Virus record (IMG/VR): IMGVR_UViG_3300028578_000001
Origin: a virus
Direction: 5' to 3' (one strand)
Length of the DNA: 51,059 bases
The notes beneath the pieces were generated by a model. The model worked only from the letters and a program-made list of their open reading frames with translations, searched no databases and was not told the DNA's origin. The stretch's first letter is position 1, and each line of letters begins with the position of its first letter. Positions 8,435 through 51,059 of the stretch are shown here, in pieces. The position numbers were made by a program, and so were the translations under genes.

Positions 8435-8570
8435 CCGATCCCTTCGCCTCCCTGCCGTGTGCGATAGTATCAGGGCGTTACGGCGCTTCGCGCCGCCGCT
8501 CTGCCGCCCCTTCGGGGCTGAGCCGCTTCGCGTCTCAGGCAAAGCCGGCTGCCGCTAACGCGGTGCGCGC

Positions 8571-13722: not shown

Positions 13723-14971
13723 GAGCCAGGCCAATGAGCTCGTCTGGGACTGGAGGTTCTGGGCTCGGCCGAAGCAACTGGCTCCTGTTGGTGATTGGTC
13801 TCTGTGGATCATTCGCGCCGGTCGTGGCTTTGGCAAGACGCGCTCGGGAAGCGGGTGGGTCCATGAGCGGGCGATAGACTATCCTGGTCGATGGATTGCG
13901 CTAGTGGCCAGAACTCCGGCCGATGCTCGCGATTACATGATTGAGGGGCCCGGGGGCATTCTGAAGAACACGGCACCTTGGGAACGGCCACGCTGGGAGC
14001 CGTCGAAGCGGCGCTTGACATGGCCGAACGAATCATGGGCGACAATCTACTCGGATGACGAGCCGGACCAGCTCCGTGGCTTTAGTGGTGATACGGCATG
14101 GTTGGACGAATTTGCCAAGTTCAAGAACGCCCGTGAAGGCTGGGACAATCTGCAGTTCGGTATGCGGGAAGCGTCGACTGATCGCCCGCGCCGACTGATC
14201 ACCACCACCCCGCGCCCGATCCCGATCCTGAGAGAATTGGAAAAGAAGGGCACCACCCGGGTGGTCATCGGGACCAGCCATGAGAATCGGGCCAATCTAG
14301 ACCCCTCTTGGTATCAGGAGACGATCCTCGACTACGAAGGGACCAGGCTGGGGCGGCAGGAGGTCAATGCCGAAATCTTAGACGATGTCCCTGGCGCACT
14401 TTGGACGATGGACATTATCGATGGGCCGGCCGATGCGCCGCGACGGGTAAAGGAGGCGCCGCAGTTGCGTCGGATCGTGGTGGCGGTCGATCCATCCGGT
14501 ACGAAGGGAGACGGAGAGGGGGATGATATCGGCATCGTCATTGCCGGCCTTGGGATGGATGGTCGCGGCTACGTGCTTGGCGACTGGACCTGCCAACTAT
14601 CGCCGGAAGGGTGGGGACGGAGGGCTATAGAGGCGTACCACAACTTCAAAGCTGATCGCGTCGTTGGAGAGAAGAATTTCGGCGGTGACATGGTGCGGTT
14701 CGTCATAACAACCGCGGACAGAAAGGTGCCGTACAAGGACGTAAGCGCTTCCCGGGGCAAGGCCGTCCGAGCCGAGCCGATCAGCGCGCTATATGAGCAA
14801 GGCAAGGTCAGCCACGTCGGCTCCTTCCCCGAGCTCGAGGACCAGATGTGCGCGATGACGGCTAGCGGTTATGTGGGCGAGGGATCACCGGACCGTGCTG
14901 ACGCGCTGGTCTGGGCTCTAACCGAGTTGATGCTAGGCGGCTCAAGCTACAACATCAGATCCCTAGTCTGA
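13640..14971 (+). CDS. terL: Terminase large subunit
   Basis: WRFWARPKQL.. Walker A GRGFGKTRSG; GTG start with GGAGGA 5 nt upstream. Confidence 0.85.
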   Translation: MQGTCSSAELLASLTVAERQAAIASLTESQANELVWDWRFWARPKQLAPVGDWSLWIIRAGRGFGKTRSGSGWVHERAIDYPGRWIALVARTPADARDYMIEGPGGILKNTAPWERPRWEPSKRRLTWPNESWATIYSDDEPDQLRGFSGDTAWLDEFAKFKNAREGWDNLQFGMREASTDRPRRLITTTPRPIPILRELEKKGTTRVVIGTSHENRANLDPSWYQETILDYEGTRLGRQEVNAEILDDVPGALWTMDIIDGPADAPRRVKEAPQLRRIVVAVDPSGTKGDGEGDDIGIVIAGLGMDGRGYVLGDWTCQLSPEGWGRRAIEAYHNFKADRVVGEKNFGGDMVRFVITTADRKVPYKDVSASRGKAVRAEPISALYEQGKVSHVGSFPELEDQMCAMTASGYVGEGSPDRADALVWALTELMLGGSSYNIRSLV

Positions 14972-15005
14972 CGGCGGTAAGCGGGCACAGTCCCCAAGCG
15001 TAACC
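14968..15005 (+). promoter_or_regulatory. CTGACGGCGGTAA motif copy 1 plus phased GTAA box
   Basis: TGA is the terL stop; GTAA at +31..34; portal ATG at +44, no SD. Confidence 0.6.
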
Positions 15006-15012
15006 TCAGCCA

Positions 15013-18196: not shown

Positions 18197-18267
18197 AGAA
18201 AGGTAGATCAGCACGGTAGATCGCTGCCACGAGGCGGAGGCCGCCGGTTCAAATCCGGCTCTTTCCC
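18197..18267 (+). ncRNA. tRNA-like element (non-canonical anticodon/variable region)
   Basis: In a 137-nt gap: T arm GCCGG-TTCAAAT-CCGGC, D arm GATC-AGCACGGTA-GATC, 6/7 acceptor pairs; anticodon arm imperfect. Confidence 0.3.
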
Positions 18268-25304: not shown

Positions 25305-25743
25305 GGGGACGACTGAGGGCAGCCGCCCCATCCGGCGCGCGATCTTGGCCACGCTGAAGGCCAACGACGATGTTACGGCCTTGGTGCCTGCCACCTCGAT
25401 TTATCCCCAGTCTACATCTAAGCCGCCCTGGCCGTTCATCAAATTCGGCAGCCCGTCAGGTGTCCCGATCGACAATGCTTGTGCTGGCGGCGACACAATC
25501 ATTGTTGCGCTTCATTCGTTCGCCAAGCCGCGGATCGTCGGTGGGGCCGTCGTGGAGACGGCTGAGGATCACGCCGACCGCATCGGGACGGCGGTTATTC
25601 GCGCCCTCAACCGACGGCGCCTGACGCTGGACAGTGGCAATCATGCCAAGGTGCGCCGAGCCGGTTTCCAGCTTCTCCAGGACGGTGCCGAAGCCGACGC
25701 CTATCATCACGTCGCTAATTTCCAGGTGCGCGTTCTCGCCTGA
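25294..25743 (+). CDS. Tail terminator/completion protein (DUF3168-like)
   Basis: Position; LVPATSIYPQSTSKPPWPFIKFG. Confidence 0.6.
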   Translation: MATEGTTEGSRPIRRAILATLKANDDVTALVPATSIYPQSTSKPPWPFIKFGSPSGVPIDNACAGGDTIIVALHSFAKPRIVGGAVVETAEDHADRIGTAVIRALNRRRLTLDSGNHAKVRRAGFQLLQDGAEADAYHHVANFQVRVLA

Positions 25744-25762
25744 TCCGCTATTGTCGTTGCCC

Positions 25763-26086
25763 ATGAGGCTACTTGCTGCCCTGCTCTCTCTTGGCCTCAG
25801 CGCTTGCGCCACCACCTCTGCCGGCCTCTACGAATCTGATGTAGAGGAAACCTTCACCAGCACCAGAGCCCCTTCAACCGTGGCGACTTGCGCGGCGGAC
25901 AGGATGCGCGGCGATACCGATGTTCGGAATGACGGAGGTCATTACTGGGTTGTGCGCAAAAACACCTATGGCGTCCCGACCGCTAGATGGGATTTCTACC
26001 CAGCCGAGAGTGGAGGAACGCGGATCGAACTACGCCAATCGATCGGGATCAACGCTGGCGTGGGAGACGTGCGCGCTTGCCTGTAG
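25763..26086 (+). CDS. Lipoprotein (moron-like insert in the tail gene row)
   Basis: MRLLAALLSLGLSAC lipobox; ATG 25763 in ORF 25634..26086. Confidence 0.65.
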   Translation: MRLLAALLSLGLSACATTSAGLYESDVEETFTSTRAPSTVATCAADRMRGDTDVRNDGGHYWVVRKNTYGVPTARWDFYPAESGGTRIELRQSIGINAGVGDVRACL

Positions 26087-26953: not shown

Positions 26954-27426
26954 TGGCTTTCACCAGCATTGAACTCAAATTCGCGGACGGCGACTATATG
27001 TTCGCGCTTCCGCTTCCCCAAATCCTTGAGCTTGAGCGCATCCGCGGCGCCGGCATCCTGGAGATTTACGGCCGCCTCATGGAAGGATGGTTTGTCTCTG
27101 GTGAGGGAGTCGAGTTCGGCGTGCCCCACGCCGGGAAGGCATACGTTCTCGACATCTTCGAACTTATCCGCCTTGCTCTTATTGGCGGCGCGAAAGGCAT
27201 GGTCAACGGGCAAGAGGTGGCAGTGTCCGCTATCCGAGCCAGGGAATTGGTTGAGGCATATTGTCATCCCGCGCCGATTGTCGAGTCTTGGAAAATCGCA
27301 AAAGCGGCGGCGTTCGCGCTGGTCGAAGGATATGACAAAGCGGAAAAAAAAAGCCTGGAGCCCATCAAAGATCCAGTGCCGGCCGCCTCGACGAAGGGCA
27401 AATCCTCGCGAACTGCGCGCGGATGA
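26953..27426 (+). CDS. Tail assembly chaperone (GTA g10-like)
   Basis: Position between major tail and tape measure genes. Confidence 0.65.
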   Translation: MAFTSIELKFADGDYMFALPLPQILELERIRGAGILEIYGRLMEGWFVSGEGVEFGVPHAGKAYVLDIFELIRLALIGGAKGMVNGQEVAVSAIRARELVEAYCHPAPIVESWKIAKAAAFALVEGYDKAEKKSLEPIKDPVPAASTKGKSSRTARG

Positions 27427-27557
27427 ACGTCGACCCCGCGACCCTCGGCTATCGGCAGTATGCAGCTTTGCTCCACGGCTGGAACGCCGAGCCTGAGGAC
27501 ACCCCCAAAGACCACACCCGCCTGAAGCGAGCCATGGACGCGCACACCGTCCACTGA
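27423..27557 (+). CDS. Small tail-assembly-region protein (44 aa), not in ORF track
   Basis: ATGA overlap; ..ATLGYRQYAALLHGW; its stop is the TGA of motif copy 6. Confidence 0.5.
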   Translation: MNVDPATLGYRQYAALLHGWNAEPEDTPKDHTRLKRAMDAHTVH

Positions 27558-27591
27558 CGGCGGTAAGGCGAAAGGACGGCGGGGCGTAGGC
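27554..27591 (+). promoter_or_regulatory. CTGACGGCGGTAA motif copy 6 plus phased GTAG box
   Basis: GTAG at +31..34; tape measure ATG 27599 at +44, no SD. Confidence 0.6.
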
Positions 27592-30864: not shown

Positions 30865-31250
30865 GCCTCGGCGAATTCCTGAAGGAGGCAGCTTCGGATC
30901 GGGCGCCATGGAACTGTTCCACCCTGCCGGCGGACTGGTGCCTTGCGCTCGGCCACCCCGACTTCGCAGCGGAATGGCGGGAGATCACCGATGACGCCGA
31001 GTGCGAGAAGATCACGGCCGAGAGCGGGGGCCTGATCGTCTTGTGGGAACGAGGGATCGGCGATGCATTGCCAGCCGTCTCGCCAACCACCGCCGATGCT
31101 CTGAAGGCCGGCGACATCGCGGTGATTGCGATCTGCGGCAACGAGGCCGGCGCGATCTGGACCGACCAAAGGTGGGCGATCAAGGCGGCTCGGGGGCTGC
31201 ACTTTCTCCCTCCTGAGAACCTGCACATCGCCAAGGTTTGGCGACCGTGA
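30861..31250 (+). CDS. Tail-associated NlpC/P60-like peptidase (tentative)
   Basis: GTGA overlap; APWNCSTLPADW Cys motif; position equivalent to GTA g14. Confidence 0.4.
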   Translation: MSLGEFLKEAASDRAPWNCSTLPADWCLALGHPDFAAEWREITDDAECEKITAESGGLIVLWERGIGDALPAVSPTTADALKAGDIAVIAICGNEAGAIWTDQRWAIKAARGLHFLPPENLHIAKVWRP

Positions 31251-33718
31251 GCAAGACGCTCGGCAGCATTGCCTTGGTGGCAGCAGCGGTGGCTGTGAAC
31301 GTCATCCCCGGCGCGGGTCAGTTCATCTCGGCTAGCTTGGTGGCGATTGGCCTGTCGAAAGCAGCCGCGCTTGCGATCACGACGGCCATCGCATCGACGG
31401 CGACCGTTGCCGGTTTGGCTTCGGCGGCAAGCCTGTTGGGCCTTGGTCCTGGCGGGATCAAGCCAGAGACGACTCAAGCTTCAATCAAGACATCGCGCCC
31501 GCCCCGTGTTTCCGGGACCGGCAAATCTCGACTTTGGGGAGCTTTTGCCCTCTATGAGACCGCCAGCGACGGGACGGCGGTCGATCTCTACGCCGTGCAT
31601 GATGGTGTGATCACAGGCACCCCAACCTTCTATCTCGCCGACGAAGAAGTGACCCTGACCGGCAACATCGTCGATGAAGGAGACGACGGGCGCTATCGCG
31701 ACGGCGCGATCAGCATTTACTGGACCGACGGAACCACGCCTGGGAGCGGCATTCCGGAGATCAATGCTCTGATCCCCGAATGGGACGGTCGCGGCGATGG
31801 TGTCGTGCTGATGGCACTCACCGCCCTATCGGTGAAGGTGAAGCGGTTTCAGGAGACCTATCCGCAAGCTGCGGTGCCAGAGCTTTCAATGGTGGCGGAA
31901 TGGGGCCTCTACCCAGACCCGTCTGCGGTTGACCCGACCGATGAGGCCGGATGGACATGGACCGAAAACCCGGTCCGTCACCTTCTCTGGTATAAGCTGA
32001 TTCATGAAGGAGTAGACTACGCAACGAAGATCGCGCCTGTAATCGACAGCTGGATCGCGGCGGCTTACGATTGCGACGCCGCGACGGCCCTGAAGGCCGG
32101 TGGGACCGAGGCGCGCTACCGAAGCTGTGTCGCGTTCAAGCACACCGACCAGCATAAGGACGTGGTCGGCGCCTTTCTGGCGACGTTCGATGGGTGGATA
32201 TCGCCGCGACAAGACGGGGCGTTGAGCCTTTACTCCGGCCGCTTTTACGAGCCGACCGTCAGCATCGGCTCAGATGAGATCGTCTCCTATACCTGGGATG
32301 GGGTCGGCATCGACGATGACGCGGCGGTGAATGAGATCATCGTCAGCTACGTCTCTGCCGAGCACGATTACAATTCACCCGAAGGAGAGGCATGGCGGGA
32401 CGAAGACGACATTTCTGACCGAGGTCAGGAGCTGTCGCAGCCGCTTGACGTTCAGGTTCCCTCCTTCCCCCAGGCCCGCCGACTGGCGAAGCGCAAGATG
32501 GCGCGGATCATGGCGCCTTCAAGAGGCACAATCACGACGAACGTGGCGGGGCGAGCGGTGCGTGGCGAGCGCTATATCGACCTGCATATCGAGGAGGCAG
32601 GGACTGTTTTCTATTCGGGCCCGGCCGAGATTACCGTGCTGACCCGCAACATCGCTACCGGCGGGGTGACTTTCGCCTGGGTTGCCGCCGATCCCGATAT
32701 AGACGACTGGAACCCGGCGACAGAAGAGGGCGAGCCCGCCGCGCTCGGGGAAAGGGTGGCGGCCGCCACCCTCACCGCCCCCACGATCACTGCCGTCGTC
32801 GCCATTGAAGGACCGCGGTTGCAGCTCACCGTGTCCGGCCCCGATCGGGAGGATCTGACATGGTTCGGCCACACCCGCGTTTCTGGCGCGACAATATGGG
32901 GCACCGACCTTGAATATACCGAAGTCGCGAGTGGGACGACGGTTACGCTGGTGACCGATATCATCCCACCCGACGCCACTGTCGAGGTCCAGGTTGCCTA
33001 TCAAGTCGGCGATGGACGTATTTCGGCATGGTCGACCACCGCGTCCGGGAACAGCAGCCTTGCCCCCTATTACATGGCTTCGGGAACGGCGGTTTCGGGG
33101 AGCGGAGATGTCTCCCCCGCGCTTCCTGCCGGTCTCTCGGCGGACGATATCCTGATTCTCCTTGTGGAAACCGCGAACCAACCGGTTGCGGCACCTGCCG
33201 GTTATTCGCAAGTCACCAATAGTCCTCAGGGCGTCGGCGTGGCTGGTGCGGCTACAGCGACGGCGCTTCAGATGTTCTGGAAGCGGGCAACGGGTTCCGA
33301 GTCCGCGCCAACCGTGACGGGCACGACGGATCACAAGGTGGCGAGGCTGCTGGCGATCAGGAACTGCATCGCAGCCGGCGATCCTTATGAGGCATCGGTA
33401 GGAGACACGCTTGCCACCGCTTCGGCGACCGTCACCGTTCCAGGACTGACGACGCTGGGGGCGCGCCGGCTTGTCCTCGCCGCCTCGAGCCGCGCCAATG
33501 ACGACGCCTCGCAGGCGGCCTTCTCCAATTGGCTGAACGGATCGTTGTCGAGCGTGACCCGGCGGGCCGAAGGTGGAACCACTACTGGAAACGGCGGCGG
33601 CTTCGGGACGGCAACCGGTGTGAAGGATGTTGCCGGTGCGACGGGTGTCACGACGGCGACCATCAGCGCTTCCGCAGAGCAGGCCCGCATCGCGATAGCG
33701 CTGAAGCCTGCGGCCTGA
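31247..33718 (+). CDS. Tail tip / host-specificity protein
   Basis: 823 aa; GTGA overlap; position after the tail hub genes. Confidence 0.6.
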   Translation: MSKTLGSIALVAAAVAVNVIPGAGQFISASLVAIGLSKAAALAITTAIASTATVAGLASAASLLGLGPGGIKPETTQASIKTSRPPRVSGTGKSRLWGAFALYETASDGTAVDLYAVHDGVITGTPTFYLADEEVTLTGNIVDEGDDGRYRDGAISIYWTDGTTPGSGIPEINALIPEWDGRGDGVVLMALTALSVKVKRFQETYPQAAVPELSMVAEWGLYPDPSAVDPTDEAGWTWTENPVRHLLWYKLIHEGVDYATKIAPVIDSWIAAAYDCDAATALKAGGTEARYRSCVAFKHTDQHKDVVGAFLATFDGWISPRQDGALSLYSGRFYEPTVSIGSDEIVSYTWDGVGIDDDAAVNEIIVSYVSAEHDYNSPEGEAWRDEDDISDRGQELSQPLDVQVPSFPQARRLAKRKMARIMAPSRGTITTNVAGRAVRGERYIDLHIEEAGTVFYSGPAEITVLTRNIATGGVTFAWVAADPDIDDWNPATEEGEPAALGERVAAATLTAPTITAVVAIEGPRLQLTVSGPDREDLTWFGHTRVSGATIWGTDLEYTEVASGTTVTLVTDIIPPDATVEVQVAYQVGDGRISAWSTTASGNSSLAPYYMASGTAVSGSGDVSPALPAGLSADDILILLVETANQPVAAPAGYSQVTNSPQGVGVAGAATATALQMFWKRATGSESAPTVTGTTDHKVARLLAIRNCIAAGDPYEASVGDTLATASATVTVPGLTTLGARRLVLAASSRANDDASQAAFSNWLNGSLSSVTRRAEGGTTTGNGGGFGTATGVKDVAGATGVTTATISASAEQARIAIALKPAA

Positions 33719-38207: not shown

Positions 38208-39035
38208 TTAGGGCACAAAGAACGGTGCCGTATCGACGGTGGCCCGAATGACCTTGTGGATGCCTGGACCACCCGTCTCGCGGCCTGCGAAATAGGCGGT
38301 GCGCTTGCTCGGCGAGAAATCGAACCCCTGTGTGGCCGAGACGTGGGGGCGATCGAGCCAGCGCAGGAACAACAGCTCCGTCCCGGTAAACTCGAACATC
38401 GCGATCTTACTGCTGCCGCCCGTGCTCAAGTGCAGCGGAAGCAGCATGACGCGGTCGCTCCAGAACACGACGCTTTGGAAATAGTTCGGCTCGACCAGCC
38501 CGGTATCGAAGCTGCCCGTCAGCTCCCAGCGCCCCAGCGATGCGTCGTAGCGGTCGATTGTCGGAATGTCGTGATAGCAGACCCAGAATTCGCTCGTGTG
38601 CGGTCGGAAGGCCCCGCCTTCGCACCAATGATCACGCACCGGCTGTTCGACGATCTCGCCCAGCTCTCCCAGGCTGAGGTTGGCGGGAATGCGATAGACC
38701 CAGCCGCGCTTCGGCGTCTCAGGATAGTTGTTCGCGCCAATGAACAAGTCGCCGCCAAAGACGGAGCCGCCATTCAACTGCGTCGCGGACGGGTGGACGT
38801 ATGGCGTGTAATCGACCTCTTTCAGTATCGCCATGCTGTCGGCGGCGAGCAGTTGAATACCCTTCTGATTGCCGCCGGACGGCTGAGAGAAGAGCCCGCC
38901 GATGGCGTATAGATTTTCGCCGGTGGGGCTCACCACTATATTCTGGTTAGACCAAAGACCGGACCCGCCGAGCACGACCGCAGATGAAAACCCGGTGGGG
39001 ATTTCGTGGCGGGCGCCGTCTTTTATGAGACGCAT
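38208..39035 (-). CDS. Free-standing homologue of the tail-fibre C-terminal domain
   Basis: DLFIGANNYPETPKRGWVYRI vs fibre KLYVCGNNYNTTPAKGFVFEI, plus further colinear matches. Confidence 0.65.
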   Translation of the reverse strand: MRLIKDGARHEIPTGFSSAVVLGGSGLWSNQNIVVSPTGENLYAIGGLFSQPSGGNQKGIQLLAADSMAILKEVDYTPYVHPSATQLNGGSVFGGDLFIGANNYPETPKRGWVYRIPANLSLGELGEIVEQPVRDHWCEGGAFRPHTSEFWVCYHDIPTIDRYDASLGRWELTGSFDTGLVEPNYFQSVVFWSDRVMLLPLHLSTGGSSKIAMFEFTGTELLFLRWLDRPHVSATQGFDFSPSKRTAYFAGRETGGPGIHKVIRATVDTAPFFVP

Positions 39036-39116
39036 GGTTGTTCCCTTCAGTCCGAGCGCTGGCGACTAAGCCAGAAAACGCCGAGACGTACAAGCACCGC
39101 CGCTGATCTAGAGCGC

Positions 39117-39200
39117 CGCGAGAGGATCGAAGCCCGGAGGGCGAAGACGCCGTAGGCGGCTGAGTTCACGAGAGCCGTGCCCCGTAGGGGCCTCGCCCAG
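39117..39200 (+). repeat. GC-rich two-hairpin repeat, copy 3
   Basis: CGCGAGAGGATCGAAGCC..CGCC-GTA-GGCG..CGAGAGCC..GCCCC-GTA-GGGGC..CGCCCAG. Confidence 0.7.
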
Positions 39201-39554
39201 ATGCCTTCCGGCCTCACGCTATACCCCGGACCTTCGAAGCCCTCCTTGCCGCTGTACGGGGCTGTGGGAGGCTCTGAGGGGCAAATGAAGCGATGACCGG
39301 AGAGTTAGGTTGCGGGCCGGGTTCGACACCGGCTCAGATCGGCTTGCAAGGCTCCTGCCCAGGGGCAGGCGATCTGCGCAACCCCGCCAACCGGCCTAGC
39401 CGCAAGCGGCTTCAGCACTACGGACGGGCAATGCTCGCTTCCATCAGCGACGCCGCAACCATGCCTCTACGCTACCATGATAAGGGCTCTGGAACAAGAG
39501 TCTGGGCGCATCCCTTCGGGACCGCGTGCTAGTTCGCTTCGCTCACCGGAGCCG

Positions 39555-40155
39555 CTATGCGTCTCCGCCTTCGGTGACGCCCGCTTGCGCGGCGCGGACG
39601 GCAAGGACCGCGCGATATTCCTCGCCGGTCAGGCTGCCCTTCTCGCCGTTGCAGCGGCGATGCGCGCCGACTAGGTTTCCGATCCGGTTGGACCCGCCGC
39701 GACACTCACTTCGGAACATCGTGGTCGATGCTGAAGCTCAGCGGGTCGTCGGGCGAGCGCAGCATCGGCTTTCCGCAGTAGACGCAGCGTCCGCCACAGT
39801 TCTCCCAGACCTTCTCCGCCGCGCTTAGGACGCGCTCTACGACCTTAACAGGCGGCAGGGGTGCGGCGGGCATCGGGATGTAGACAATCACCTTCCCGGC
39901 ACGACGGTGGGGGCGTAGGCGGTCCTTGCGAGCGGCGCTGTCGGACAGAACCTGGTTGCGCGCGATCACCTCGCGCACCACGGCATGAGCGCGTTCGTAC
40001 AGTTCTCGCTCAGCCTCTCGGCGGCGCTTCTTCGCGAGCTTGACGGCGTGCAGCGCAGCGTTCGCTGTGCCACCGTGGACGCCAGTTAGAGGGGTGTCAT
40101 CGCCCTTCCAGCGATGCGCGCGACTTGCCATGATGTTCACCGTTTCGAGGGTCAA
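39555..40155 (-). pseudogene. HNH endonuclease interrupted by a +1 frameshift at about 39706
   Basis: Frame A ends ..CVYCGK..SIDHDVPK-TGA; +1 frame continues SECRGGSNRIGNLVGAHRRCNGEKG.. to TAG 39555. Confidence 0.6.
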
Positions 40156-40426: not shown

Positions 40427-40441
40427 AAATTCTCCTTCCTT

Positions 40442-40533
40442 GCGAAAGCCGATTGAAGCCCGTCAGGGGCAAGACCGCGTAGCGGGCTTGATCGCGAAGC
40501 GACGAAAGCGCGGTGCGCGAAGCGCATTCGCCC
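40442..40533 (+). repeat. GC-rich two-hairpin repeat, copy 4
   Basis: Closest to copy 6; stem 1 is CAAG..CTTG instead of CGAG..CTCG. Confidence 0.7.
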
Positions 40534-40574
40534 TGACTATTTCCATAGCATTCCCCTCTCGATTCTGCCATATA

Positions 40575-41128: not shown

Positions 41129-41322
41129 TAGGTTGGTACCAGGGTCGGCCAATCGTTTGGCAGACCAATATCGGCAGCAACGCCTTCCCGCGACGCTGGC
41201 TTCTTCACCTCCTCCAGCAAGGCGAAGAACCAAGAGAACCACCGGTCCACATGATCCGCTGTCCAGTGCCCGTTGAAGGGCGGGAGTCGGTCGACCAGAA
41301 CTGCTAGTGTCTCGCGCTTCAT
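41128..41322 (-). CDS. Hypothetical protein (64 aa)
   Basis: ATG 41322 with GGGAGG upstream, ATGA overlap with the stop of 41319..41858. Confidence 0.45.
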   Translation of the reverse strand: MKRETLAVLVDRLPPFNGHWTADHVDRWFSWFFALLEEVKKPASREGVAADIGLPNDWPTLVPT

Positions 41323-41858
41323 GCGAACCTCCCGTGGACAGAATGTGCCGATAGCCGTTCGATCTCGGCGAGAATGTCGGGGTGGCGATCGAACCATTCG
41401 CCATTGAGGCGGTGGGCGGCGAAGCGCGCATGATATTCGCGCTCTGTCGCTTCCGATCCGGCCGTGGTCGCCAAGATCCCCAACTTCGCCGGGTTGCCGG
41501 TCTGAAGGCCGATCAGCCGGCGCTCGGCATTCTCCGCGAAGCCGATCTTCACCGGGCCGGCGTCACCGCCAATGAAGTAGACGACGCCTTGGCGCTGGCG
41601 CGGTGCCACGCCTCGTGGAGCCAGCAAGGCGTTGAGCCCGCCAGGTGTTGCTACGCCGAGCGTGATGGCTTCCGCTATCGCATCCTGAAGGCTGACAGCC
41701 TCAAGCGGCAGCATCGCGCCGCGGCCGTCACCAACCAGCTTGTAGCCGCGCTCCGGGTTGCCGATCACCGTGGCCGGCCAGGGATGCAGGCTCTTGGCGT
41801 CGAACCATGTTTCGTCGGTGGACAGCGGATGGTCAGCGAATACCATTATGTCTTGCAT
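41319..41858 (-). CDS. T5orf172 / GIY-YIG-superfamily domain protein
   Basis: VYFIGGDAGPVKIGFAEN..RLIGLQTGNP..REYHARFAAHRLNGEWF. Confidence 0.65.
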   Translation of the reverse strand: MQDIMVFADHPLSTDETWFDAKSLHPWPATVIGNPERGYKLVGDGRGAMLPLEAVSLQDAIAEAITLGVATPGGLNALLAPRGVAPRQRQGVVYFIGGDAGPVKIGFAENAERRLIGLQTGNPAKLGILATTAGSEATEREYHARFAAHRLNGEWFDRHPDILAEIERLSAHSVHGRFA

Positions 41859-41922: not shown

Positions 41923-41967
41923 TTTACACCGAGAGGGTCGGCGGTTCGAGCCCGTCACCGCCCACCA
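41923..41967 (+). other. attP core = 3' half of a tRNA-Val(UAC)-like gene
   Basis: TTTACAC-CGAGA-GGGTC-GGCGG-TTCGAGC-CCGTC-ACCGCCC-A-CCA; no matching 5' half upstream; overlaps the integrase 3' end. Confidence 0.7.
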
Positions 41968-43192
41968 CCATTTCCCGTAGAATATCGCCGTTTAGCACCA
42001 CCGTCAAGTTTTGGCCGCGCTTGGGGATGGACAGCGAATGGACAGCAAGCCATTCCCGCGCTGCGGCGCAATAGTCCCTCCAAACGGTGGACAGCGCCTT
42101 GGAAACATTGAGCAAATAGTCGGGATCATATTTGGCGTAGACCCGAGTCGTTCGCTTCAGCACAAGGTGTCCCATCGCCGTTTCCAGCTCCTCGTTCGGG
42201 ACGCGCATTTTGCGGAGCCGCGTGGCGATAGTGTGCCGGATCGTCTTTGGCACCGCCAGCGCCGGCAGATCGAGATTGGTCCGCATCGTCCGCCACCAGC
42301 GCTTGCGCGACAGGACCGGCTTGTGGGGGTGAGCCGCCCACGCATCGAGCCAGGGGGCGAACTCCGGTATCACCGGCACGACAGGGTTGTGCTTCTTTGT
42401 CCGCGGCCATTTCGGCGGGTGAAGGTCGAGCAGGCCGTCGGCCGGGCGATACTGGCGGCCAGGGTCCATCGCTAGGCCCGCCTCGGGACGAACGAGCGCG
42501 CCGATCATCAGCAAGATCCACCGCAGGGCGGCTATATCGTAGGCCGCGTAGCCGATCAGTGCCCCCATCTCTGCGCGCGTCAGCACAAGGTCCCGCGGCG
42601 GTGATCGGTACTTGCCCTTGAGCGATGGCACTTTCGGGACCCAAGGCAGGCGCGCCGTCTCGCCGACGTTGTGGTTCAGCGCTGCGCGAATGTCGTCAAG
42701 GTTGCGTTGTACGGACTCACCGACGACGCCTGGCGAACTGTGCCTGAAGTCCCGGCCGGCCCATGGCACATCGTAGCTGTGCGGTCCCATCCGCCATTTC
42801 CGGAAGCGTTCGAACAGCTGCGGGTTGAGCTGCGTGACCGTGACGTCGGTTGTGGCCTCGTCCTGCATCAGGAAGCCGATGAACTGGCGGATCGAGCTGG
42901 CGATCTGTCCGGCGGAATCGGCATCGCGCCCGTGCTCTTCCCAATAGTTGAACAGCAAGGGAATGACCGGCGCGTCCTCCGGCGCCTGTGGGCCCTTGGC
43001 CCGTACCGCCTCTTCATGGGCACGGATGACGCCCTTGGCATCGTCTAGGCTCTGCTTCCGAGTGCTGCGATAGCGGACCTGTCGAGTACCCTGCTCGTAC
43101 CAGGCGATCTGCCAGACGTCCGGCGCCTTTCCATCCCGACGCTTGTCGAGCCAGAAATCTCCGTAGACGTAGGGGCTCTCTTCTCGGCCCAT
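41924..43192 (-). CDS. int: Tyrosine integrase
   Basis: ..TIRHTIATRL..AMGHLV..RVYAKY catalytic region; C-terminus ..GGDGLEPPTLSV is the antisense translation of the tRNA fragment. Confidence 0.9.
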   Translation of the reverse strand: MGREESPYVYGDFWLDKRRDGKAPDVWQIAWYEQGTRQVRYRSTRKQSLDDAKGVIRAHEEAVRAKGPQAPEDAPVIPLLFNYWEEHGRDADSAGQIASSIRQFIGFLMQDEATTDVTVTQLNPQLFERFRKWRMGPHSYDVPWAGRDFRHSSPGVVGESVQRNLDDIRAALNHNVGETARLPWVPKVPSLKGKYRSPPRDLVLTRAEMGALIGYAAYDIAALRWILLMIGALVRPEAGLAMDPGRQYRPADGLLDLHPPKWPRTKKHNPVVPVIPEFAPWLDAWAAHPHKPVLSRKRWWRTMRTNLDLPALAVPKTIRHTIATRLRKMRVPNEELETAMGHLVLKRTTRVYAKYDPDYLLNVSKALSTVWRDYCAAAREWLAVHSLSIPKRGQNLTVVLNGDILREMVVGGDGLEPPTLSV

Positions 43193-44452: not shown

Positions 44453-44548
44453 TGGAACCTCCCATACGCCCGATTGAAGCCGCGACAGCGGGCGAGACGC
44501 CGCAGGCGGCTCGATGCGGAGTACGAAAGCGGGTTGCCGAAGGCCGTC

Positions 44549-45295
44549 CTAAACATCCTCCCCTCCAGAGCCTAATAGGGACTGTCCCTTGAGAGCGCGG
44601 ATGGCTTTCGCGATGTCACCGGCAGTGGTGACGCGGAATGCGGCCTCGTCGTCGTCTCCGTCTGTCGCCCTCACGATGGCAGCGAGGCGACTTGTTTCCT
44701 TGTCAGCCACCTTCGCCGCTTCCTCCAGTACCTCATCCCGTCCAGACAAAGCGGGGAGGGAGAGGGCCTTTTCGATGGCGCGAAGGGCTTCAGCTTCGAG
44801 GACGAGCGGTGGGACATCCTCCGCCAGCAAGTCGACCTCGCGGTTGGGCTCGATCTCCGCGTCCAACAGTCGCCTCGCCTGTAGCGAAGGCTCGACAGAT
44901 GAGGATGCCTTGGCAGCGAAACGGGTGATCTGATCGAGGAGAGCCCTCTGGACGGGGCTCGGCTCCTGTATCGGCTCGACAGGTGGCCGGGTGAGGGCGG
45001 CGATGGCTGAGCGTGCCGCATCCTTCATAACCGAAGACGGATGTTCAACCTTGCCGCGCGCGTCACGGCGATAAAGCGTCTGCGTGATCGCAAGAGCGAC
45101 CCGTTCCACATCCTCTTGCGAAGGCTGGGATGGGGTGAGGGCGGCGAGGCGATGACGGGCGAAGGCTTGGACGGCGTCGCTAAGATCGACCATTCCATAG
45201 GCCATCGCCTCTTCGCCGGTCAGTTCCGCCGCAGCATCGCGATCAGCCTGTGTTACCGGGCAAGGCTTCATCTCCTGGAGGGGGGTGAGGGTCAT
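44549..45295 (-). CDS. Hypothetical protein
   Basis: ORF track. Confidence 0.55.
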   Translation of the reverse strand: MTLTPLQEMKPCPVTQADRDAAAELTGEEAMAYGMVDLSDAVQAFARHRLAALTPSQPSQEDVERVALAITQTLYRRDARGKVEHPSSVMKDAARSAIAALTRPPVEPIQEPSPVQRALLDQITRFAAKASSSVEPSLQARRLLDAEIEPNREVDLLAEDVPPLVLEAEALRAIEKALSLPALSGRDEVLEEAAKVADKETSRLAAIVRATDGDDDEAAFRVTTAGDIAKAIRALKGQSLLGSGGEDV

Positions 45296-45819
45296 GGCTG
45301 TTCCTGACTGAGGGTGGGCGTCTCGGCTTCGCCGACCGCGCTGGCGGGCCGTTGGCCCTGAGCCTGCTGCGCAGTCTCAGCCGTGCCGGCGCTCATCGCT
45401 GACGCGGCGCGGGGGCTGCGGACACGCTCCAGCCACTCGGCGTATTCGACGACGACCAGCGGGCTTAGTGCTGCGTCGATCAGTTTCCGATAGACTTCCT
45501 CGTAGCGAAGGTTGCTGCCGATCAGCAGCCAAGCGTAATCGACCATCGCTTGGGTCGGCTCGCGCATGGCTTCGATGGCGGCGCGGGCATCGTCACGAAA
45601 CCCGGCAGCCAGGTCGGCGGGCATCAGAGCCAAGCAGTTTCTGATCGGCGGGCAGCCCTTCCGCATGGCGATCTTATTGGCCAGCGCTTCGGCCACTCGT
45701 TCGATCATACTCTCTGCGTTAGGGATCGAAACCGAAGGCGGAGACGCGTCAGCGGCTCCGGGCGATGCCTGAGAGCCCGACGGCGCGTCAGCGCCGGAAC
45801 GCCCATTATCTATCGTCAC
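45292..45819 (-). CDS. Hypothetical protein
   Basis: ORF track; 4-nt overlap. Confidence 0.55.
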   Translation of the reverse strand: MTIDNGRSGADAPSGSQASPGAADASPPSVSIPNAESMIERVAEALANKIAMRKGCPPIRNCLALMPADLAAGFRDDARAAIEAMREPTQAMVDYAWLLIGSNLRYEEVYRKLIDAALSPLVVVEYAEWLERVRSPRAASAMSAGTAETAQQAQGQRPASAVGEAETPTLSQEQP

Positions 45820-46982: not shown

Positions 46983-48167
46983 TCAAATCTCCGCTGCGAA
47001 AGGTGGGATGTCCTCGTCGGCGAGGTCGTAGATCGGCGCGATATCCAGCCACGGCTCCACGCCGAACGCCTCCGCATAGGTGCGGAATTTGCGCTTCTGC
47101 TGGTTGATGATTTCGTCGGTGATCGTTTTGATGGTGCCGCCGCGCGGATACCAAAGGCCGCGCGTGACGGGCGCCGGCCCCTTCTGCTGAAAGACGAACA
47201 GCCACTTGTCGGGCTCGGCGTGCTTCGCCCATTGAAGCGCCCACGCCGGATCATCCAGGCCGTGCACGACAGAGGCTCCATGTTTACGGACGAGCTTCCG
47301 AACCTCCGACGCGCCCTCGAAATAGACGGACGGCTGAATGTTGTAGTGGTAGCTGGCGATCTCGTAGGCGATGGCGCGTTCGATCGATCGCTCGCGCTGG
47401 TTGCCAAAGCTTTTGAGGTCGACCATCGCGCGGATTTTGAGGTAATCGACGCGCGCCTTCATCGGCACGCCGTTGGTCGGGCAGTGCCAGAACAGCGACA
47501 CTTCGGGGTGTCCGCCGCTGAATGCCTTCGACAACTCGGGGTCGCGGTCGATCATGTAGGCGGCGATCTCGAGCCGCTGCCACTGGTCGCGTCCGATCAT
47601 CGCCTTCCCGGCATTCGCTGCGAGATGTTGATCCGTCATCACGTCCCAAATCTGGGCGGTGGGATCGACGTCGAGTAGCTGCTTGATCCTGTCCGGCTTG
47701 TTGCCGCTAGCTGGTCGCTCGCCGGCTTCCTTGAGCGCGGCGCGGATTTCGTCGTCGGTCGTCAGGGCGTCTGGATAGTCGCGCTTGTCGAGATAGACCG
47801 CGAACCTCTCTTCGAACGTCTCTCGGCCTTCCAGGATGCGGCAGTGATAGGCGTTGCCGAGCGTGCGATGATCCCTGTCCTCTTCCTCTTTGCCCGGGTT
47901 CATCCACGACCGCGCCCAGAACAGCATCGGGGAAGATGCCAGCGCCTTGATGCCGCTATTCGACAGCGCCGGGACCGCGTGATAATCGGCTTCCGGCATG
48001 TTGAAATATATCCCCGGCTCCGGAAACGGGGGCGTGTCCGGAAGCCGGGGGGGCTCCACGCGGGCTGGTTCTCCCGGTTGCTCGCGCGTGTCGCCTAGGA
48101 GCTCGCCGACGGTTGTGAACGCATCCATCGGCCGGCGAAGCTCGGGGATGGGCGGCTGGTCAGGCAT
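46983..48167 (-). CDS. RecE-like PD-(D/E)XK exonuclease (DUF3799-like)
   Basis: IYFNMPEADYHAVPALSNSGIKAL; ATG 48167 with GGGAGG upstream; directly upstream of recT. Confidence 0.6.
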   Translation of the reverse strand: MPDQPPIPELRRPMDAFTTVGELLGDTREQPGEPARVEPPRLPDTPPFPEPGIYFNMPEADYHAVPALSNSGIKALASSPMLFWARSWMNPGKEEEDRDHRTLGNAYHCRILEGRETFEERFAVYLDKRDYPDALTTDDEIRAALKEAGERPASGNKPDRIKQLLDVDPTAQIWDVMTDQHLAANAGKAMIGRDQWQRLEIAAYMIDRDPELSKAFSGGHPEVSLFWHCPTNGVPMKARVDYLKIRAMVDLKSFGNQRERSIERAIAYEIASYHYNIQPSVYFEGASEVRKLVRKHGASVVHGLDDPAWALQWAKHAEPDKWLFVFQQKGPAPVTRGLWYPRGGTIKTITDEIINQQKRKFRTYAEAFGVEPWLDIAPIYDLADEDIPPFAAEI

Positions 48168-48274
48168 CGGAACCTCCCGCGCCATGCGATGCCACTCTGC
48201 GAAGACGCGAAGCGGCTGAGGCCCGAAGGGCTGGCAGCGCGGTGCCGCGCAGCGGCAGGCGCCCATAGCCTGTC

Positions 48275-49213
48275 TCAACCCTGTCCATCTGTTTCCTCCT
48301 GATGAGAGATACTGTGTTCGGGCGATGCCTGACGGCCCGCGCTGTCGTCGCAAGCGACGGAGCCACCTTCGGCGTCTCCGCCCTTCTGGCTTCCATCGCT
48401 ATCGCGGACACATTCCGGCCAGTGGTACGACTTCTCGGCTTCAGCCATGTCGGTGAGAAACCATCCCCGCTCCGTCGCGAGCAGATCGACCGACCACCGC
48501 CCGCCGAGGGCGGCACCGGCGCGGGAGGCAATGCGCCGAAGCTCGCCTTCATCTTCTGGCGTGCAAAGGGCGGCGTAATCGGTATCGGAAAGATGGCAAC
48601 CGCCCTGTTCAAGAGCTTCGCGCGGCCAGTACGGATGGAAACACTCGATCATGCCACCATCGACAAAGAAGCGGAATTCCTTGCACACGGGCATGTCGCC
48701 AAAGCGAGGGCAGACGCCGACCGGGATTGTCGGCAGCATCTCTCGCACCGCCCAGCTGCTCCACGGTAGTTCGCCGAACATGCCGTTGCACTCAGAAAAC
48801 TCTGCGATGCCGCAGACATGCGCGCCAAGGTCCTCCGCACTAGGAACGAAGCATGTCCGTCGCCAGTCGTGCTTGCCGGACGTGTGATCGGTGCGGAGAA
48901 AAACCGGAAACCCTATGGCCTCGCACGCTGCCCGCAGTTCGCGGAGGAAGGCTTCGGCGGGCGTCAGATCGGCCTCGCCATTCCAGAGAAGAGTTAGAAT
49001 GGCTTCGTGAGCATCATCTGGCATCGGGAGGAGGACGGTTTTGGGAACGGGCAGACCCGCCGCCTCAACCTTAGGAAACCAATAGGAAAGCGCCGTCCGT
49101 TCGCGCGAGGGATCGAAGCCCGGAGGGCCGAGACCGGAGGGCTCGGCTTGCGAGAGCCCGGTGCCGTCAGGCACGCGCCCTGAAAGCTTGCCGCTCATAT
49201 CCAAATCCCCCAT
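48275..49213 (-). CDS. ATP-grasp-fold protein
   Basis: YWFPKVEAAGLPVPKT..FPVFLRTD..EFRFFVDGG..WSVDLLATERGWFLTDMAEAE; its first ~40 codons are the antisense translation of repeat copy 5. Confidence 0.5.
   Translation of the reverse strand: MGDLDMSGKLSGRVPDGTGLSQAEPSGLGPPGFDPSRERTALSYWFPKVEAAGLPVPKTVLLPMPDDAHEAILTLLWNGEADLTPAEAFLRELRAACEAIGFPVFLRTDHTSGKHDWRRTCFVPSAEDLGAHVCGIAEFSECNGMFGELPWSSWAVREMLPTIPVGVCPRFGDMPVCKEFRFFVDGGMIECFHPYWPREALEQGGCHLSDTDYAALCTPEDEGELRRIASRAGAALGGRWSVDLLATERGWFLTDMAEAEKSYHWPECVRDSDGSQKGGDAEGGSVACDDSAGRQASPEHSISHQEETDGQG
49104..49182 (+). repeat. GC-rich two-hairpin repeat, copy 5
   Basis: CGCGAGGGATCGAAGCC..CGAGACC-GGA-GGGCTCG..CGAGAGCC..GTGCC-GTCA-GGCAC. Confidence 0.7.
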
Positions 49214-49271
49214 CCTATTATCAATCCGAACATCCCCAGACCTTTGGGATCGAGGAGAGCGGGAACTAGGT

Positions 49272-49365
49272 GTTGGGCGATTGCGCTTCGCGCACCGCCG
49301 CTTTCGTCCTTCGGATCGAGCCCGCTACGCGGTCTCGCCGCTTCGCGCATCAATCGGCTATCGCG
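49272..49365 (-). repeat. GC-rich two-hairpin repeat, copy 6
   Basis: Reverse complement reads CGCGATAGCCGATTGATGC..CGAGACCGC-GTA-GCGGGCTCG..TGCGC-GAA-GCGCA..ATCGCCCAAC. Confidence 0.7.
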
Positions 49366-49369
49366 GAAG

Positions 49370-50020
49370 CTAATCGACATATTCGACCTCCCGCTGAATA
49401 ATTTCGGGATGCTCAACGACCTGTTCCAGCATGTCGGCGAGACCGCCGCCACAGATGGTGAACCCTTGCCGCGCGTACTTGATGAGCCGCCGCAGGCTGG
49501 ACGTGCCATAGGACAGCTTGCCGGGGACGAGCCGCTTGTTGGCGATGTCGAACAGCGCCCATTGGCCGAACAGCAGATCGGTCCCGTCAAATCCACACTG
49601 GCAGATGGAAAAGTCGAAGCTGTCGATTACCGCATCCAGCGTTTCGAAGAACGCAACTCGAATGGCCTGCACCTTCAGTTCCGGCCCGCCGCCTTCGAAT
49701 GAGTCCTCGTCAACCGGCTTGGCCTCGGCCGCTGGCAGGCGGAAAGTGACGTTGAAATCGCTCTCATTCTGTTGCTTCGCGCCTTTGCCCTTTATCGCTT
49801 CGCAGAAGGCGTCGAACTGCGCCTGATCGCGGAAGAAGAAGTCGAAGTCACTTTCCTGCGGCAAGCGCGAGATGAGGCGGCGGACGCTTCCGCCCGCTAG
49901 CCAAGGGCCGGTGGCGGTGAGCGCCGGGAGGCGCGCAAGCGCCTTCGCGAAATCCGTGTCGTCGAACTCATTGCGGCCGTAGCGGTCCCAGAAGGCGGCC
50001 AAGGAAACGCGGGTGTTCAT
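49370..50020 (-). CDS. Minimal nucleotidyltransferase (pol-beta superfamily)
   Basis: LAGGSVRRLISRLPQESDFDFFF (GS..DxD; resembles the GGxVRD..DxD head of CCA-adding enzymes); ATG 50020 with GGAGGG upstream. Confidence 0.55.
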   Translation of the reverse strand: MNTRVSLAAFWDRYGRNEFDDTDFAKALARLPALTATGPWLAGGSVRRLISRLPQESDFDFFFRDQAQFDAFCEAIKGKGAKQQNESDFNVTFRLPAAEAKPVDEDSFEGGGPELKVQAIRVAFFETLDAVIDSFDFSICQCGFDGTDLLFGQWALFDIANKRLVPGKLSYGTSSLRRLIKYARQGFTICGGGLADMLEQVVEHPEIIQREVEYVD

Positions 50021-50129
50021 GCAGCCCTCCATTGCGCCTGATCGAAGCGGCGAAGCCGGCGAGACTGCCCTTGCAGGCTCGACCGTAGGCGAGAGCAGGT
50101 TGCCCGAAGGGACGCCCAACCCTTGTCCA

Positions 50130-50333
50130 TCATCCTTCTCCCTGGTCATGGGGGGTGGAGAGGGCAGACCTGAGCGAACTAATCGCGTCTCGCCGCCATG
50201 CTCCGTCACGCCGAGCGCCGCACCTGCACGGCTCATCCTTGCAGCCGATGCGACACAGACGGACGGCTTCGTCGCCGATTGCCAGTTCGACGCGCGACCA
50301 CGTTTCAAGGTCGGCAAGCGTCAGGTCGCTCAT
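50130..50333 (-). CDS. Hypothetical small protein
   Basis: ATG 50333 with GAGAGG upstream, directly after repeat copy 7. Confidence 0.35.
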   Translation of the reverse strand: MSDLTLADLETWSRVELAIGDEAVRLCRIGCKDEPCRCGARRDGAWRRDAISSLRSALSTPHDQGEG

Positions 50334-50626
50334 CCTCTCTGTCCCCTATGATCGACAGAAGAAGGGTTGGGCGATTGCCGCGTTGCGGCACCGGGGCTCT
50401 CGTGCTTCGCATCGAGCCCTTCGGTCTCGACCAAAGGCTTCGATCCTCTATCGCGGGCGTACTTCTCAGCCGCCTCAATTCTCGCGGTATAATTCGCGAA
50501 TACGATGACCGCACAGACAGCGGCGAAGACGTTCACTTTGAGGAACGCCAACATCAGTGCGAAACACACCATCGAAAGCGTGGGCGAGCCGAGCATTCGC
50601 TCAAGCCGGTCGAGGAAGCTCGTCAC
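50330..50626 (-). CDS. Membrane protein whose 3' end runs into repeat copy 7
   Basis: Hydrophobic MVCFALMLAFLKVNVFAAVCAVIVF; the C-terminal ~35 aa are the translated repeat. Confidence 0.5.
   Translation of the reverse strand: MTSFLDRLERMLGSPTLSMVCFALMLAFLKVNVFAAVCAVIVFANYTARIEAAEKYARDRGSKPLVETEGLDAKHESPGAATRQSPNPSSVDHRGQRG
50366..50455 (-). repeat. GC-rich two-hairpin repeat, copy 7
   Basis: Reverse complement reads CGCGATAGAGGATCGAAGCC..CGAGACC-GAA-GGGCTCG..CGAGAGCC..TGCCGC-AAC-GCGGCA..ATCGCCCAAC. Confidence 0.7.
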
Positions 50627-51059
50627 GCCGCCCTCCCGATCTGCCGGACAGCCTCGCCATCAAAGGCAAACAGTTGCTCAGCGTAGAGGTCGTGCACGCG
50701 CGTCGTGACGTAATCGCGATAGACGTAGGTTGGCCGCGACTTGCGCTTGATGGCATAGGTGTGCAGGGTCATCTCTCCGTTCGCTTCGTCTGTTTCGTTG
50801 ATGACGAGGAAGTCTTTGTGAAAGCAGCGGATCATGGCGGCGTTCAGCGCTTCCTGAAGCGAGGCGGGTTCGCAGTTAAGATAAAGCGCCGATGTCCGCT
50901 TGCCGTCAGAGACGCGGAAGGCCTCATAGCGCTTGGCACTGTAGCGCACGGCGTGCCTCGCCAGCCGCATGGCGCTGGCGGCTATGTCCGGGATGGCTCT
51001 AACCGCAGCGTAGAGGGCGCGATGCAGTGGATCTGGAAACGGCTCGCCGAAGCGGTCGT
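50623..51059 (-). CDS. Hypothetical protein, spans the circular junction
   Basis: ORF 50623..50970 stays open to the window end; the likely start is the ATG at nt 167 of the duplicated start region. Confidence 0.55.
   Translation of the reverse strand, partial: DRFGEPFPDPLHRALYAAVRAIPDIAASAMRLARHAVRYSAKRYEAFRVSDGKRTSALYLNCEPASLQEALNAAMIRCFHKDFLVINETDEANGEMTLHTYAIKRKSRPTYVYRDYVTTRVHDLYAEQLFAFDGEAVRQIGRAA
50933..51059. repeat. Terminal direct repeat (circular-assembly overlap)
   Basis: Identical to nt 1-127. Confidence 0.95.

Follow-up and report, generated by a model that had tools for sequence, protein, structure and literature searches.

A branched, GC-rich DNA module at the probable borders of exchanged gene cassettes in temperate phages and conjugative plasmids

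The conserved upstream (CUP) repeats of IncN plasmids were reportedly described by Delver and Belogurov in 1997. According to two reports, the CUP repeats of pKM101/R46 combine ArdK-binding sites with sigma-70 promoters (PMC6289460, PMC5371602). Besides these, structured single-stranded DNA (ssDNA) elements of plasmid leading regions and palindromic repeats lying in frame within open reading frames (ORFs) are already known. Among the former, the Frpo, ssi and ssp ssDNA promoters are orientation-specific, structured DNA elements of the transferred strand (T-strand) upstream of establishment and anti-defence genes, and some of them prime or block complementary-strand synthesis (PMC11541004, PMC12672017, bioRxiv 10.64898/2026.01.09.698686). 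Here, we analyse the IMG/VR virus record IMGVR_UViG_3300028578_000001, a stretch of 51,059 nucleotides (in the following, the window), in which a preliminary description made from the sequence alone had noted seven GC-rich repeats with two hairpins each. These repeats belong to a widespread family of 85-100-bp GC-rich DNA modules which reside on temperate phages, conjugative plasmids and regions resembling integrative and conjugative elements (ICEs), and in which one strand, here called the model strand, has a conserved branched fold. We tentatively propose that the module may be a cis-acting ssDNA signal travelling with exchangeable gene cassettes.

The preliminary description had not recognised the repeat as a described phage element. 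This stands as far as our literature searches went, which returned no description of the branched core, of its distribution over plasmids, ICE-like regions and phages, or of its occurrence in frame and in pairs at the ends of genes (the original 1997 account of the CUP repeats being known through citing papers). It does not stand in the sense of phage-specificity, as the element also makes up the core of the CUP repeat of IncN plasmids and occurs commonly on conjugative plasmids.

Fold, strand asymmetry and distribution

When aligned, the seven repeats first noted share 23 invariant columns, and the ordered sequence blocks ascribed to them are indeed conserved. By means of a sequence profile and, thereafter, a covariance model the number of copies in the window rose from these seven, which are real and lie essentially where they had been placed, to 16 (exhaustive search with model R2, see below, E<=2e-6). 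Two stretches previously regarded as degenerate relatives, at about 8478-8545 and 48201-48270, are actually full members of the family (8466-8564 and 48176-48271). A pattern representing the 5' half of the element matched five times in the window as compared to 0.00 matches expected in shuffles, and in more than 118 viral contigs, and the first covariance model revealed 173 copies in 81 viral sources.

An unbiased mutual-information scan on 146 distinct copies recovered the hairpins together with previously unmodelled pairs, so that the hairpins of the initial two-hairpin fold were retained but their number was not: there are four hairpins, and the fold is completed by a long-range helix and a stem that closes it. 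The closing stem P1 pairs columns 4-8 with 84-88 (GCGnn/nnCGC, followed by CCA), with pair 7-85 occurring as AT (35), TA (18) or CG (17). The long-range helix PA consists of the pairs 10-67, 11-66, 15-62 and 19-59 and is interrupted by a conserved internal loop GAA/GA (G16 A17 A18 / G60 A61). The hairpins are P2, P3, the optional mini-hairpin P3b, and the variable terminal hairpin P4; in P3, AGAC/GGCT includes an A.G mismatch that is invariant. A compensatory stem change from CGAG/CTCG to CAAG/CTTG, which had already been pointed out, was confirmed.

A second covariance model (R2) incorporated the revised structure and was built exclusively on viral copies; in loci from cellular genomes it detected 89 copies of full length. 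For 87 copies independent of those used for the model, 92.9% of the cells are paired in contrast to 76.7% in shuffles, there are 351 versus 98 double-change cells, the covariation score is 0.37 as compared to 0.11 in shuffles and 0.02-0.07 in slid registers, and 21 of the 29 pairs show compensatory changes. Covariation thus supports the fold in independent copies, and with it the notion of a structure-selected element.

With respect to the mismatches in the stems, G.T and A.C are about equally frequent in the cellular copies (31 and 29, respectively), G.U pairs making up 1.3% and being no commoner than A.C, and the whole mismatch spectrum is strand-symmetric. In the viral copies, the model strand has about two G.T for each A.C, whether the copies are sense (24:10) or antisense (35:16) to the mRNA, and therefore this wobble bias is not tied to the transcribed strand. 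The loops are c-GNA-g triloops almost throughout, a motif known from the d(GCGAAGC) literature for its very stable DNA mini-hairpins. In the 16 window copies there are 33 such mini-hairpins on the model strand and none on its complement, and although these copies make up only 3% of the window they hold 57% of its c-GNA-g motifs. Likewise, on a segment of the IncN-like plasmid PCN061p4 the T-strand is favoured by eight to none. Minimum free energy folds computed with DNA parameters reproduce the architecture, the model strand being more stable than its complement in five of five pairs. Taken together, the symmetry of the wobble pairs, the strand-asymmetric GNA loops and the DNA folds indicate that the selected object is one DNA strand, and this evidence points to an element that would act as ssDNA rather than as RNA.

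True copies are present in 98 of 120 sampled cellular genome loci, most of them from Alphaproteobacteria and others from, e.g., Pseudomonas, Paraburkholderia, Selenomonas, Planctomycetes and Terriglobia. Their neighbours include genes for a MobA/MobL relaxase, a topoisomerase III-like enzyme, an SLT transglycosylase, SSB and ImmA. Of note, a metagenome-assembled genome of the Acidimicrobiales contains three pattern matches with an exact 56-nt spacing (locus L130, 640-776), where the profile sees no full elements; this is a tandem repeat which has the 5'-half motif in common with the family. In a plasmid collection, one query retrieved 671 records (553 of them conjugative) and another 901 records (766 conjugative). 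In Escherichia coli the element resides exclusively on plasmids, being found in 66 of 5426 genomes at 218 places of which none is chromosomal, and it is never annotated. This speaks against the abundant host repetitive extragenic palindromic (REP) sequence or MITE (miniature inverted-repeat transposable element) which the preliminary description had considered as the case against its own view.

On PCN061p4 (locus L244), four copies lie on one strand of the stb-ardC-ssb leading region. Each of them forms the distal GC-rich end of a repeat of about 650 bp with a TTGACT-17-TATACT promoter, which is the IncN CUP repeat and resides upstream of leading-region genes. Only the core of about 90 nt and not the promoter-proximal part matches the phage; the phage copies thus have the core in common with CUPs but do not seem to be CUPs themselves. 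The core extends well beyond IncN, to plasmids of PromA-like, Pseudomonas and Xanthomonas backgrounds, to phages and to members of several phyla. In the GC-rich part between the CUP promoter and the element, further c-GNA-g mini-hairpins are located at 25380-25842 and 27200-27588 of PCN061p4, all on the T-strand, so that the structured single-stranded region in plasmids may exceed the 90-nt core.

In six plasmids, comprising IncN, Pseudomonas and Xanthomonas MOBF backbones as well as a MOBP PromA-like plasmid, 16 of 16 copies are oriented opposite to the relaxase and ssb/ard genes. As leading-region genes use the T-strand as template (PMC11541004), these copies reside on the transferred strand and, like Frpo and ssi elements, in the leading region upstream of early genes; this orientation adds to the indications of ssDNA as opposed to RNA. 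Plasmid copies are intergenic, and all of them are, like about half of the phage copies, antisense to the neighbouring genes.

Position of the copies relative to genes and cassette borders

The window is a phage genome of about 50.9 kb with 63% GC. Twelve of its 16 copies form six inverted pairs of arms which are arranged head to head (the head being the 5' and the tail the 3' end of the model strand), each around one small accessory-gene region or core, and the remaining four are solo. As positions 1-127 and 50933-51059 are identical over 127 nt, the contig is either a circular assembly or terminally redundant, and one arm-core-arm unit crosses the junction of its ends. The copies and cargo genes are, with bit scores and their E-values from cmsearch with R2:

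294-383, +: element copy (74.1 bits, E=6e-15), right arm, 5'-type antisense, of the unit spanning the contig ends; partner 50362-50457(-)
2563-2651, +: solo copy (40.1 bits, E=4e-7), upstream of and antisense to a leftward gene
8466-8564, -: element copy (51.2 bits, E=1e-9), left arm of the methylase unit
8571-9257, +: cargo gene for an N6/N4 DNA methylase (Pfam PF01555, E=1.7e-23), starting 7 nt from the head of the arm
9354-9449, +: element copy (67.1 bits), right arm of the methylase unit and traversed by ORF 9254-9463
39115-39205, +: solo copy (64.6 bits), upstream of and antisense to the leftward gene 38208-39035
39497-39593, -: element copy (49.4 bits), left arm of unit 39497/40540
40439-40540, +: element copy (71.1 bits), right arm of unit 39497/40540
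44463-44556, +: solo copy (52.5 bits)
45309-45408, -: element copy (57.0 bits), left arm of unit 45309/45811, which has a 304-bp core
45713-45811, +: element copy (77.3 bits), right arm of unit 45309/45811
48176-48271, +: solo copy (37.0 bits, E=2e-6), within the PDDEXK exonuclease ORF (Pfam DUF3799) at its 5' end
48313-48408, -: element copy (65.9 bits), 3' (sense) arm of the ATP-grasp unit, starting 1-2 codons past the conserved C-terminal HWPEC (homologue alignment)
48409-49099, -: cargo, core of an R2K-type ATP-grasp protein (501 homologues, PF14243; homologue alignment)
49100-49187, +: element copy (73.2 bits), 5' (antisense) arm of the ATP-grasp unit
49268-49367, -: element copy (87.9 bits), 3' arm of the nucleotidyltransferase unit; stop codon of the gene 5 nt before the head
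49370-50023, -: cargo gene for a nucleotidyltransferase (phrog_1614, E=1.5e-8), with its own Shine-Dalgarno sequence (SD), ATG and stop between the arms
50031-50124, +: element copy (52.8 bits), 5' arm of the nucleotidyltransferase unit
50362-50457, -: element copy (65.8 bits), 3' arm of the unit spanning the contig ends; ORF 50330-50626 reads through it

The same geometry prevails in phages generally. Neighbouring copies there are paired as (-)(+) in 55 cases as compared to 14 (++), 8 (--) and 29 (+-), and 42 of the 55 (-)(+) pairs are spaced 175-700 bp apart, none being closer than 175 bp. The segments enclosed by the arms are unrelated to each other, and the head is directed toward the gene core in 80 copies and otherwise in 16.

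Three observations had been made for the window already, namely that copies lie at gene boundaries, that two of them form translated 3' ends of ORFs which they enter in one and the same frame, and that the ATP-grasp ORF has a copy as its 5' end. All three turned out to be general rules, the phage copies residing within ORFs only a few codons away from either end. A link to HNH genes did not generalise when neighbouring genes were clustered. For 44 copies at gene 3' ends, the frame of the gene never stops before the element and remains open throughout it in 36 cases (compared to 21 of 43 control frames), the stop codon following at a median of 21 nt beyond the tail. Similarly, when the frame is traced backwards at 59 copies at gene 5' ends, the whole element is free of stops in 50 (29 of 51 controls). 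In this respect the element resembles the Rickettsia palindromic elements (RPEs), i.e., it is an in-frame palindromic insert within ORFs. The SD and ATG of the downstream gene are found within 7-30 nt of the tail.

The ATP-grasp gene illustrates this anatomy. In ORF 48275-49213 the only in-frame starts are a GTG at about 49190 and an ATG at 49213, at or outside the tail of copy 49100-49187. Of the 501 R2K ATP-grasp homologues, most have 232-250 amino acids, start with MxDKTALSYWFPK and end with HWEGCxx, and most have no arms; arm-derived extensions are found on the window protein and on four proteins from other genomes (P0002, P0004, P0007, P0009). The canonical Met is missing in four of four aligned arm-bearing proteins (the window copy, P0002, P0004 and P0009), and the DNA encoding P0007 (locus L241) likewise has no start codon at this position. 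In several genomes, only 1-3 codons separate the arms from the ATP-grasp core. L241 has a strong SD and a GTG, overlapping the upstream stop, 17 nt outside the tail, and the SD and ATG of the next gene follow the other tail, while in the arm-less locus L242 the same genes are joined by ATGA overlaps. An identical gene-arm anatomy is apparent in the deposited annotation of the cultured Sphingopyxis phage VSN-002. The nucleotidyltransferase unit, in which the gene has its own start and stop between the arms, is an exception.

Gene callers extend ORFs through the element, as in P0002, P0004, P0007 and P0009 as well as in gene_19 and gene_29 of VSN-002. The resulting N- and C-terminal extensions are of low complexity and rich in Ala, Gly, Ser, Arg and Pro, and the element thus explains many over-long ORF calls with such termini as a systematic annotation feature of GC-rich phage genomes. 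In VSN-002 (locus L240), a gene annotated as 'telomere resolvase' (14717-15835) lies 400 nt from an arm-bracketed gene.

Comparisons between loci yielded 191 pairs which share only the element, at 80% identity or more and up to 97.5-98%, and in which the similarity ends 0-4 nt from both ends of the element, i.e., of the unit from the GCG at the base of P1 through CGCCCA. Where similarity breaks off on one side only, it does so at the head in six and at the tail in 12 cases, and kilobase-scale replacements or a 97-bp extra ORF start exactly at the element edge. Syntenic relatives retain the element while their flanks diverge to about 80%. The sharp ends of the element coincide with recombination breakpoints and would mark the borders of gene cassettes exchanged between mobile elements, which fits the earlier suggestion of a recombination hotspot shuffling accessory cassettes.

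Partner arms are 65.3% identical, copies from the same genome 64.5% and copies from different genomes 68.2%, and as identity within genomes is below that between genomes there is neither concerted evolution nor a within-genome burst. Partner arms also showed no co-evolution of the kind to be expected from an RNA panhandle or gene conversion. Target-site duplications or direct repeats were absent from the outward flanks of 39 units, and no empty sites occurred among the fetched loci, which had been chosen for carrying the element. In the clustering of neighbouring genes no dedicated enzyme, transposase or recombinase recurred near the copies but only ordinary early-region phage genes, ordinary phage integrases being nearby in only eight loci.

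Possible roles of the element

In leading regions, structured T-strand DNA can serve as ssDNA promoter, as primer source, or as a roadblock prolonging the single-stranded state (PMC12672017; bioRxiv 10.64898/2026.01.09.698686). The element does not belong to the Frpo/ssi family, as the members of the latter are near-perfect hairpins of about 300 nt which rebuild -35 and -10 boxes, whereas it is branched, comprises about 90 nt without promoter boxes, and also occurs in double-stranded DNA (dsDNA) phages, in both orientations and inside ORFs. It is nevertheless alike in strand, place and logic. The interpretation that we favour, with considerable reservation, is therefore that of a cis-acting ssDNA signal which might accompany exchangeable gene cassettes. 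The model strand would fold when unpaired and be recognised as, or simply be formed as, ssDNA; its activity might then be that of a priming or ssDNA-promoter site, or of a roadblock to complementary-strand synthesis. On a model-strand template, synthesis would proceed from the 3' tail to the 5' head and on into the adjoining gene, which matches the orientation of the head toward the gene, and with a head-to-head inverted pair each strand would have, 3' of the core, a copy that is able to fold. The transferred strand of the leading region is the model strand in conjugative plasmids.

Several observations weigh against this proposal. A dsDNA phage has no obligatory single-stranded entry stage in which the copies would fold, and in plasmids the genes of the leading region are themselves uniformly oriented, with which the T-strand orientation of the element is confounded. 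In a promoter scan the CUP promoters were located about 500 nt from the element and none inside it, and as -35 and -10 boxes are not seen in the element it is not a promoter of the Frpo type. In addition, single-sequence folding energies are only marginally below those of shuffles (z from -1.6 to +0.5 with RNA and from -2.3 to +0.5 with DNA parameters), so that the support for the structure comes from covariation and not from thermodynamics. Finally, 38 of the 44 genes enter their 3' copies in one frame, encoding ..AQAIEARRAET..GSVHESAV..AP.., and two conserved blocks are kept in phase in 31 of the 44 3' copies, though not in 5' copies. This preference for frame and phase points to an added constraint at the protein level which lies outside the ssDNA model.

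Frame and phase, together with the paired columns 11/66 which give Ala codons in 3' copies, are what would be expected if the element were primarily a portable coding module, i.e., a C-terminal peptide tag fused to diverse small proteins. We nevertheless regard this as the most improbable of the explanations considered, because Watson-Crick covariation extends throughout the element including non-synonymous positions, the element has no overall coding phase and a length that is overall not a multiple of three, 5' copies are entered in two frames, plasmid copies are intergenic, and the peptide has no Pfam domain. The strongest covarying pair, 15-62, changes from C-G to T-A at synonymous third positions. 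It thus seems that the DNA fold and the peptide both constrain the 3' copies, the alternative being effects of sub-lineages.

A cis-regulatory RNA was among the options raised initially. A complex conserved fold with covariation as well as copies adjoining start and stop signals, with the SD and ATG of the next gene shortly past the tail, would be in keeping with an element acting in mRNAs, e.g., in processing, stability, termination or translational coupling. Given that G.U pairs are scarce, that the wobble bias of the viral copies stays the same whichever strand is transcribed, that GNA loops of the DNA type are confined to the model strand, and that so many copies are antisense to their neighbours, this explanation is very hard to sustain. 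There is also no relevant match in Rfam 15, searched with the whole window and with seven loci at E<=1 and with a 321-nt stretch at E<=10.

Selfish palindromic mobile DNA similar to MITEs or RPEs, spreading among mobile elements, conferring no function on its carrier and, in genomes with little free space, tolerated only at the very ends of ORFs, is a rather unlikely explanation, although the most probable of the rivals. Like RPEs, MITEs and REPINs, the copies are short GC-rich palindromic repeats; near-identical ones (92-98%) lie in unrelated flanks with sharp ends, and the copies lie in frame within ORFs that are open more often than control frames, have no conserved neighbouring gene, and are missing from many close homologues of the same gene. 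However, neither target-site duplications nor terminal inverted repeats nor an associated transposase were found, copies within a genome are not alike, and the element is neither chromosomal, as seen in E. coli, nor genus-specific. Its consensus does not contain the GTAG tag, and a branched fold of about 90 nt is unlike REP/REPIN units. The arms, moreover, are structurally intact around ATP-grasp cores which have diverged to about 57% amino acid identity, and the strict T-strand orientation in plasmids as well as the orientation of the head toward the gene and the pairing at gene termini would not be expected from random insertion followed by selection.

Integron attC sites, which are likewise folded ssDNA conserved in structure more than in sequence and tightly abutting the ends of cassette ORFs, suggest yet another possibility, namely a recombination site at which a structure-specific recombinase or nuclease would swap gene cores between elements. 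Single genes are tightly bracketed with breakpoints at the element edges, CUP-mediated rearrangements have been reported in IncN plasmids (PMC5371602), and a motif survey from 2017 allowed for attC-like ssDNA motifs beyond hairpin complexity (PMC5737381). In contrast to attC, where each cassette has a single bulged hairpin that is directly oriented, with R and L core sites and a dedicated IntI, the element is branched, its arms are inverted, a core site of the GTTRRRY type is not in its consensus, and no recombinase family co-occurs. As, in addition, there are no (-)(+) pairs below 175 bp, no empty sites among the fetched loci, and no co-evolution between partner arms, such a site is improbable. 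Two further candidates were dropped, namely a mimic of a relaxase nic site, since the phages have no relaxase and the element is found on both MOBF and MOBP backbones, and a similarity to the PriA n'-site (AAGCGG), which fits only a subset of the copies.

Two other systems resemble the element in part. The inverted terminal repeats of parvoviruses are branched, T- or Y-shaped DNA hairpins of about 120 nt which flank the coding part as inverted repeats and contain conserved mismatches; the left-end hairpin of minute virus of mice (MVM) includes a bubble of GAA/GA, and the 3' hairpins are used for the synthesis of the complementary strand. However, they reside at the physical ends of linear ssDNA genomes and require an HUH nickase, and as there is neither such a context nor such an enzyme for the element this is a resemblance only. 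In T4-type phages, the PeSL 'mobile regulatory cassettes' have repeated stem-loop boundaries which flank small variable genes and mark the borders of indels and replacements. They consist of an early promoter and a stem-loop, are AT-rich, intergenic and in direct orientation, and are not related to the element in sequence or structure (PMC2839356).

Returning to the proposed ssDNA signal, a broader version of it is conceivable but doubtful: the element might be a universal ssDNA 'establishment' signal common to conjugative plasmids, ICEs and temperate phages, representing a new compact class of ssDNA-active cis elements recognised by a host priming, transcription or helicase factor. Portable cassettes could then be converted or expressed from either strand, and phages would use inverted pairs in the coding ends of anti-defence and accessory genes. 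If active as ssDNA, the element would be a compact and very common addition to the few known ssDNA elements controlling the establishment of plasmids in new hosts, covering clinically important resistance plasmids of the IncN type (at least 901 plasmid records). As a shared border of exchangeable cassettes it would also tie plasmid leading regions to the accessory regions of temperate phages. The element is a strong, unannotated landmark for locating establishment and anti-defence cassettes.

Other features of the window

Genes in the context of the repeats encode an HNH_3+NUMOD4 endonuclease (2626-3417(-)), a T5orf172/MUG113 protein (41319-41858(-)), an integrase (phrog_1, 41924-43192(-)) and the DUF3799 PDDEXK exonuclease (46983-48290(-)). 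This is a temperate phage, with the block rich in repeats as its early/recombination region. With respect to terminase, portal and capsid genes, cultured phages are only distant relatives, and fetching relatives with the exonuclease protein yielded a single distant locus.

Two paralogous N6/N4 DNA methylase genes are located at 6436-7227 and 8571-9257, with stretches that are 71-76% identical. Only the second lies between element arms, which suggests that it is a cassette-borne duplicate.

A tRNA-like gene at 18197-18267(+) matches the Rfam tRNA model with 40 bits, and ARAGORN reports it as 'tRNA-???' with an abnormal anticodon loop. ARAGORN also calls a tRNA-Leu(CAG) at 33233-33313(+), which is probably spurious as it resides within the long ORF 31238-33718 and is unseen by Rfam.

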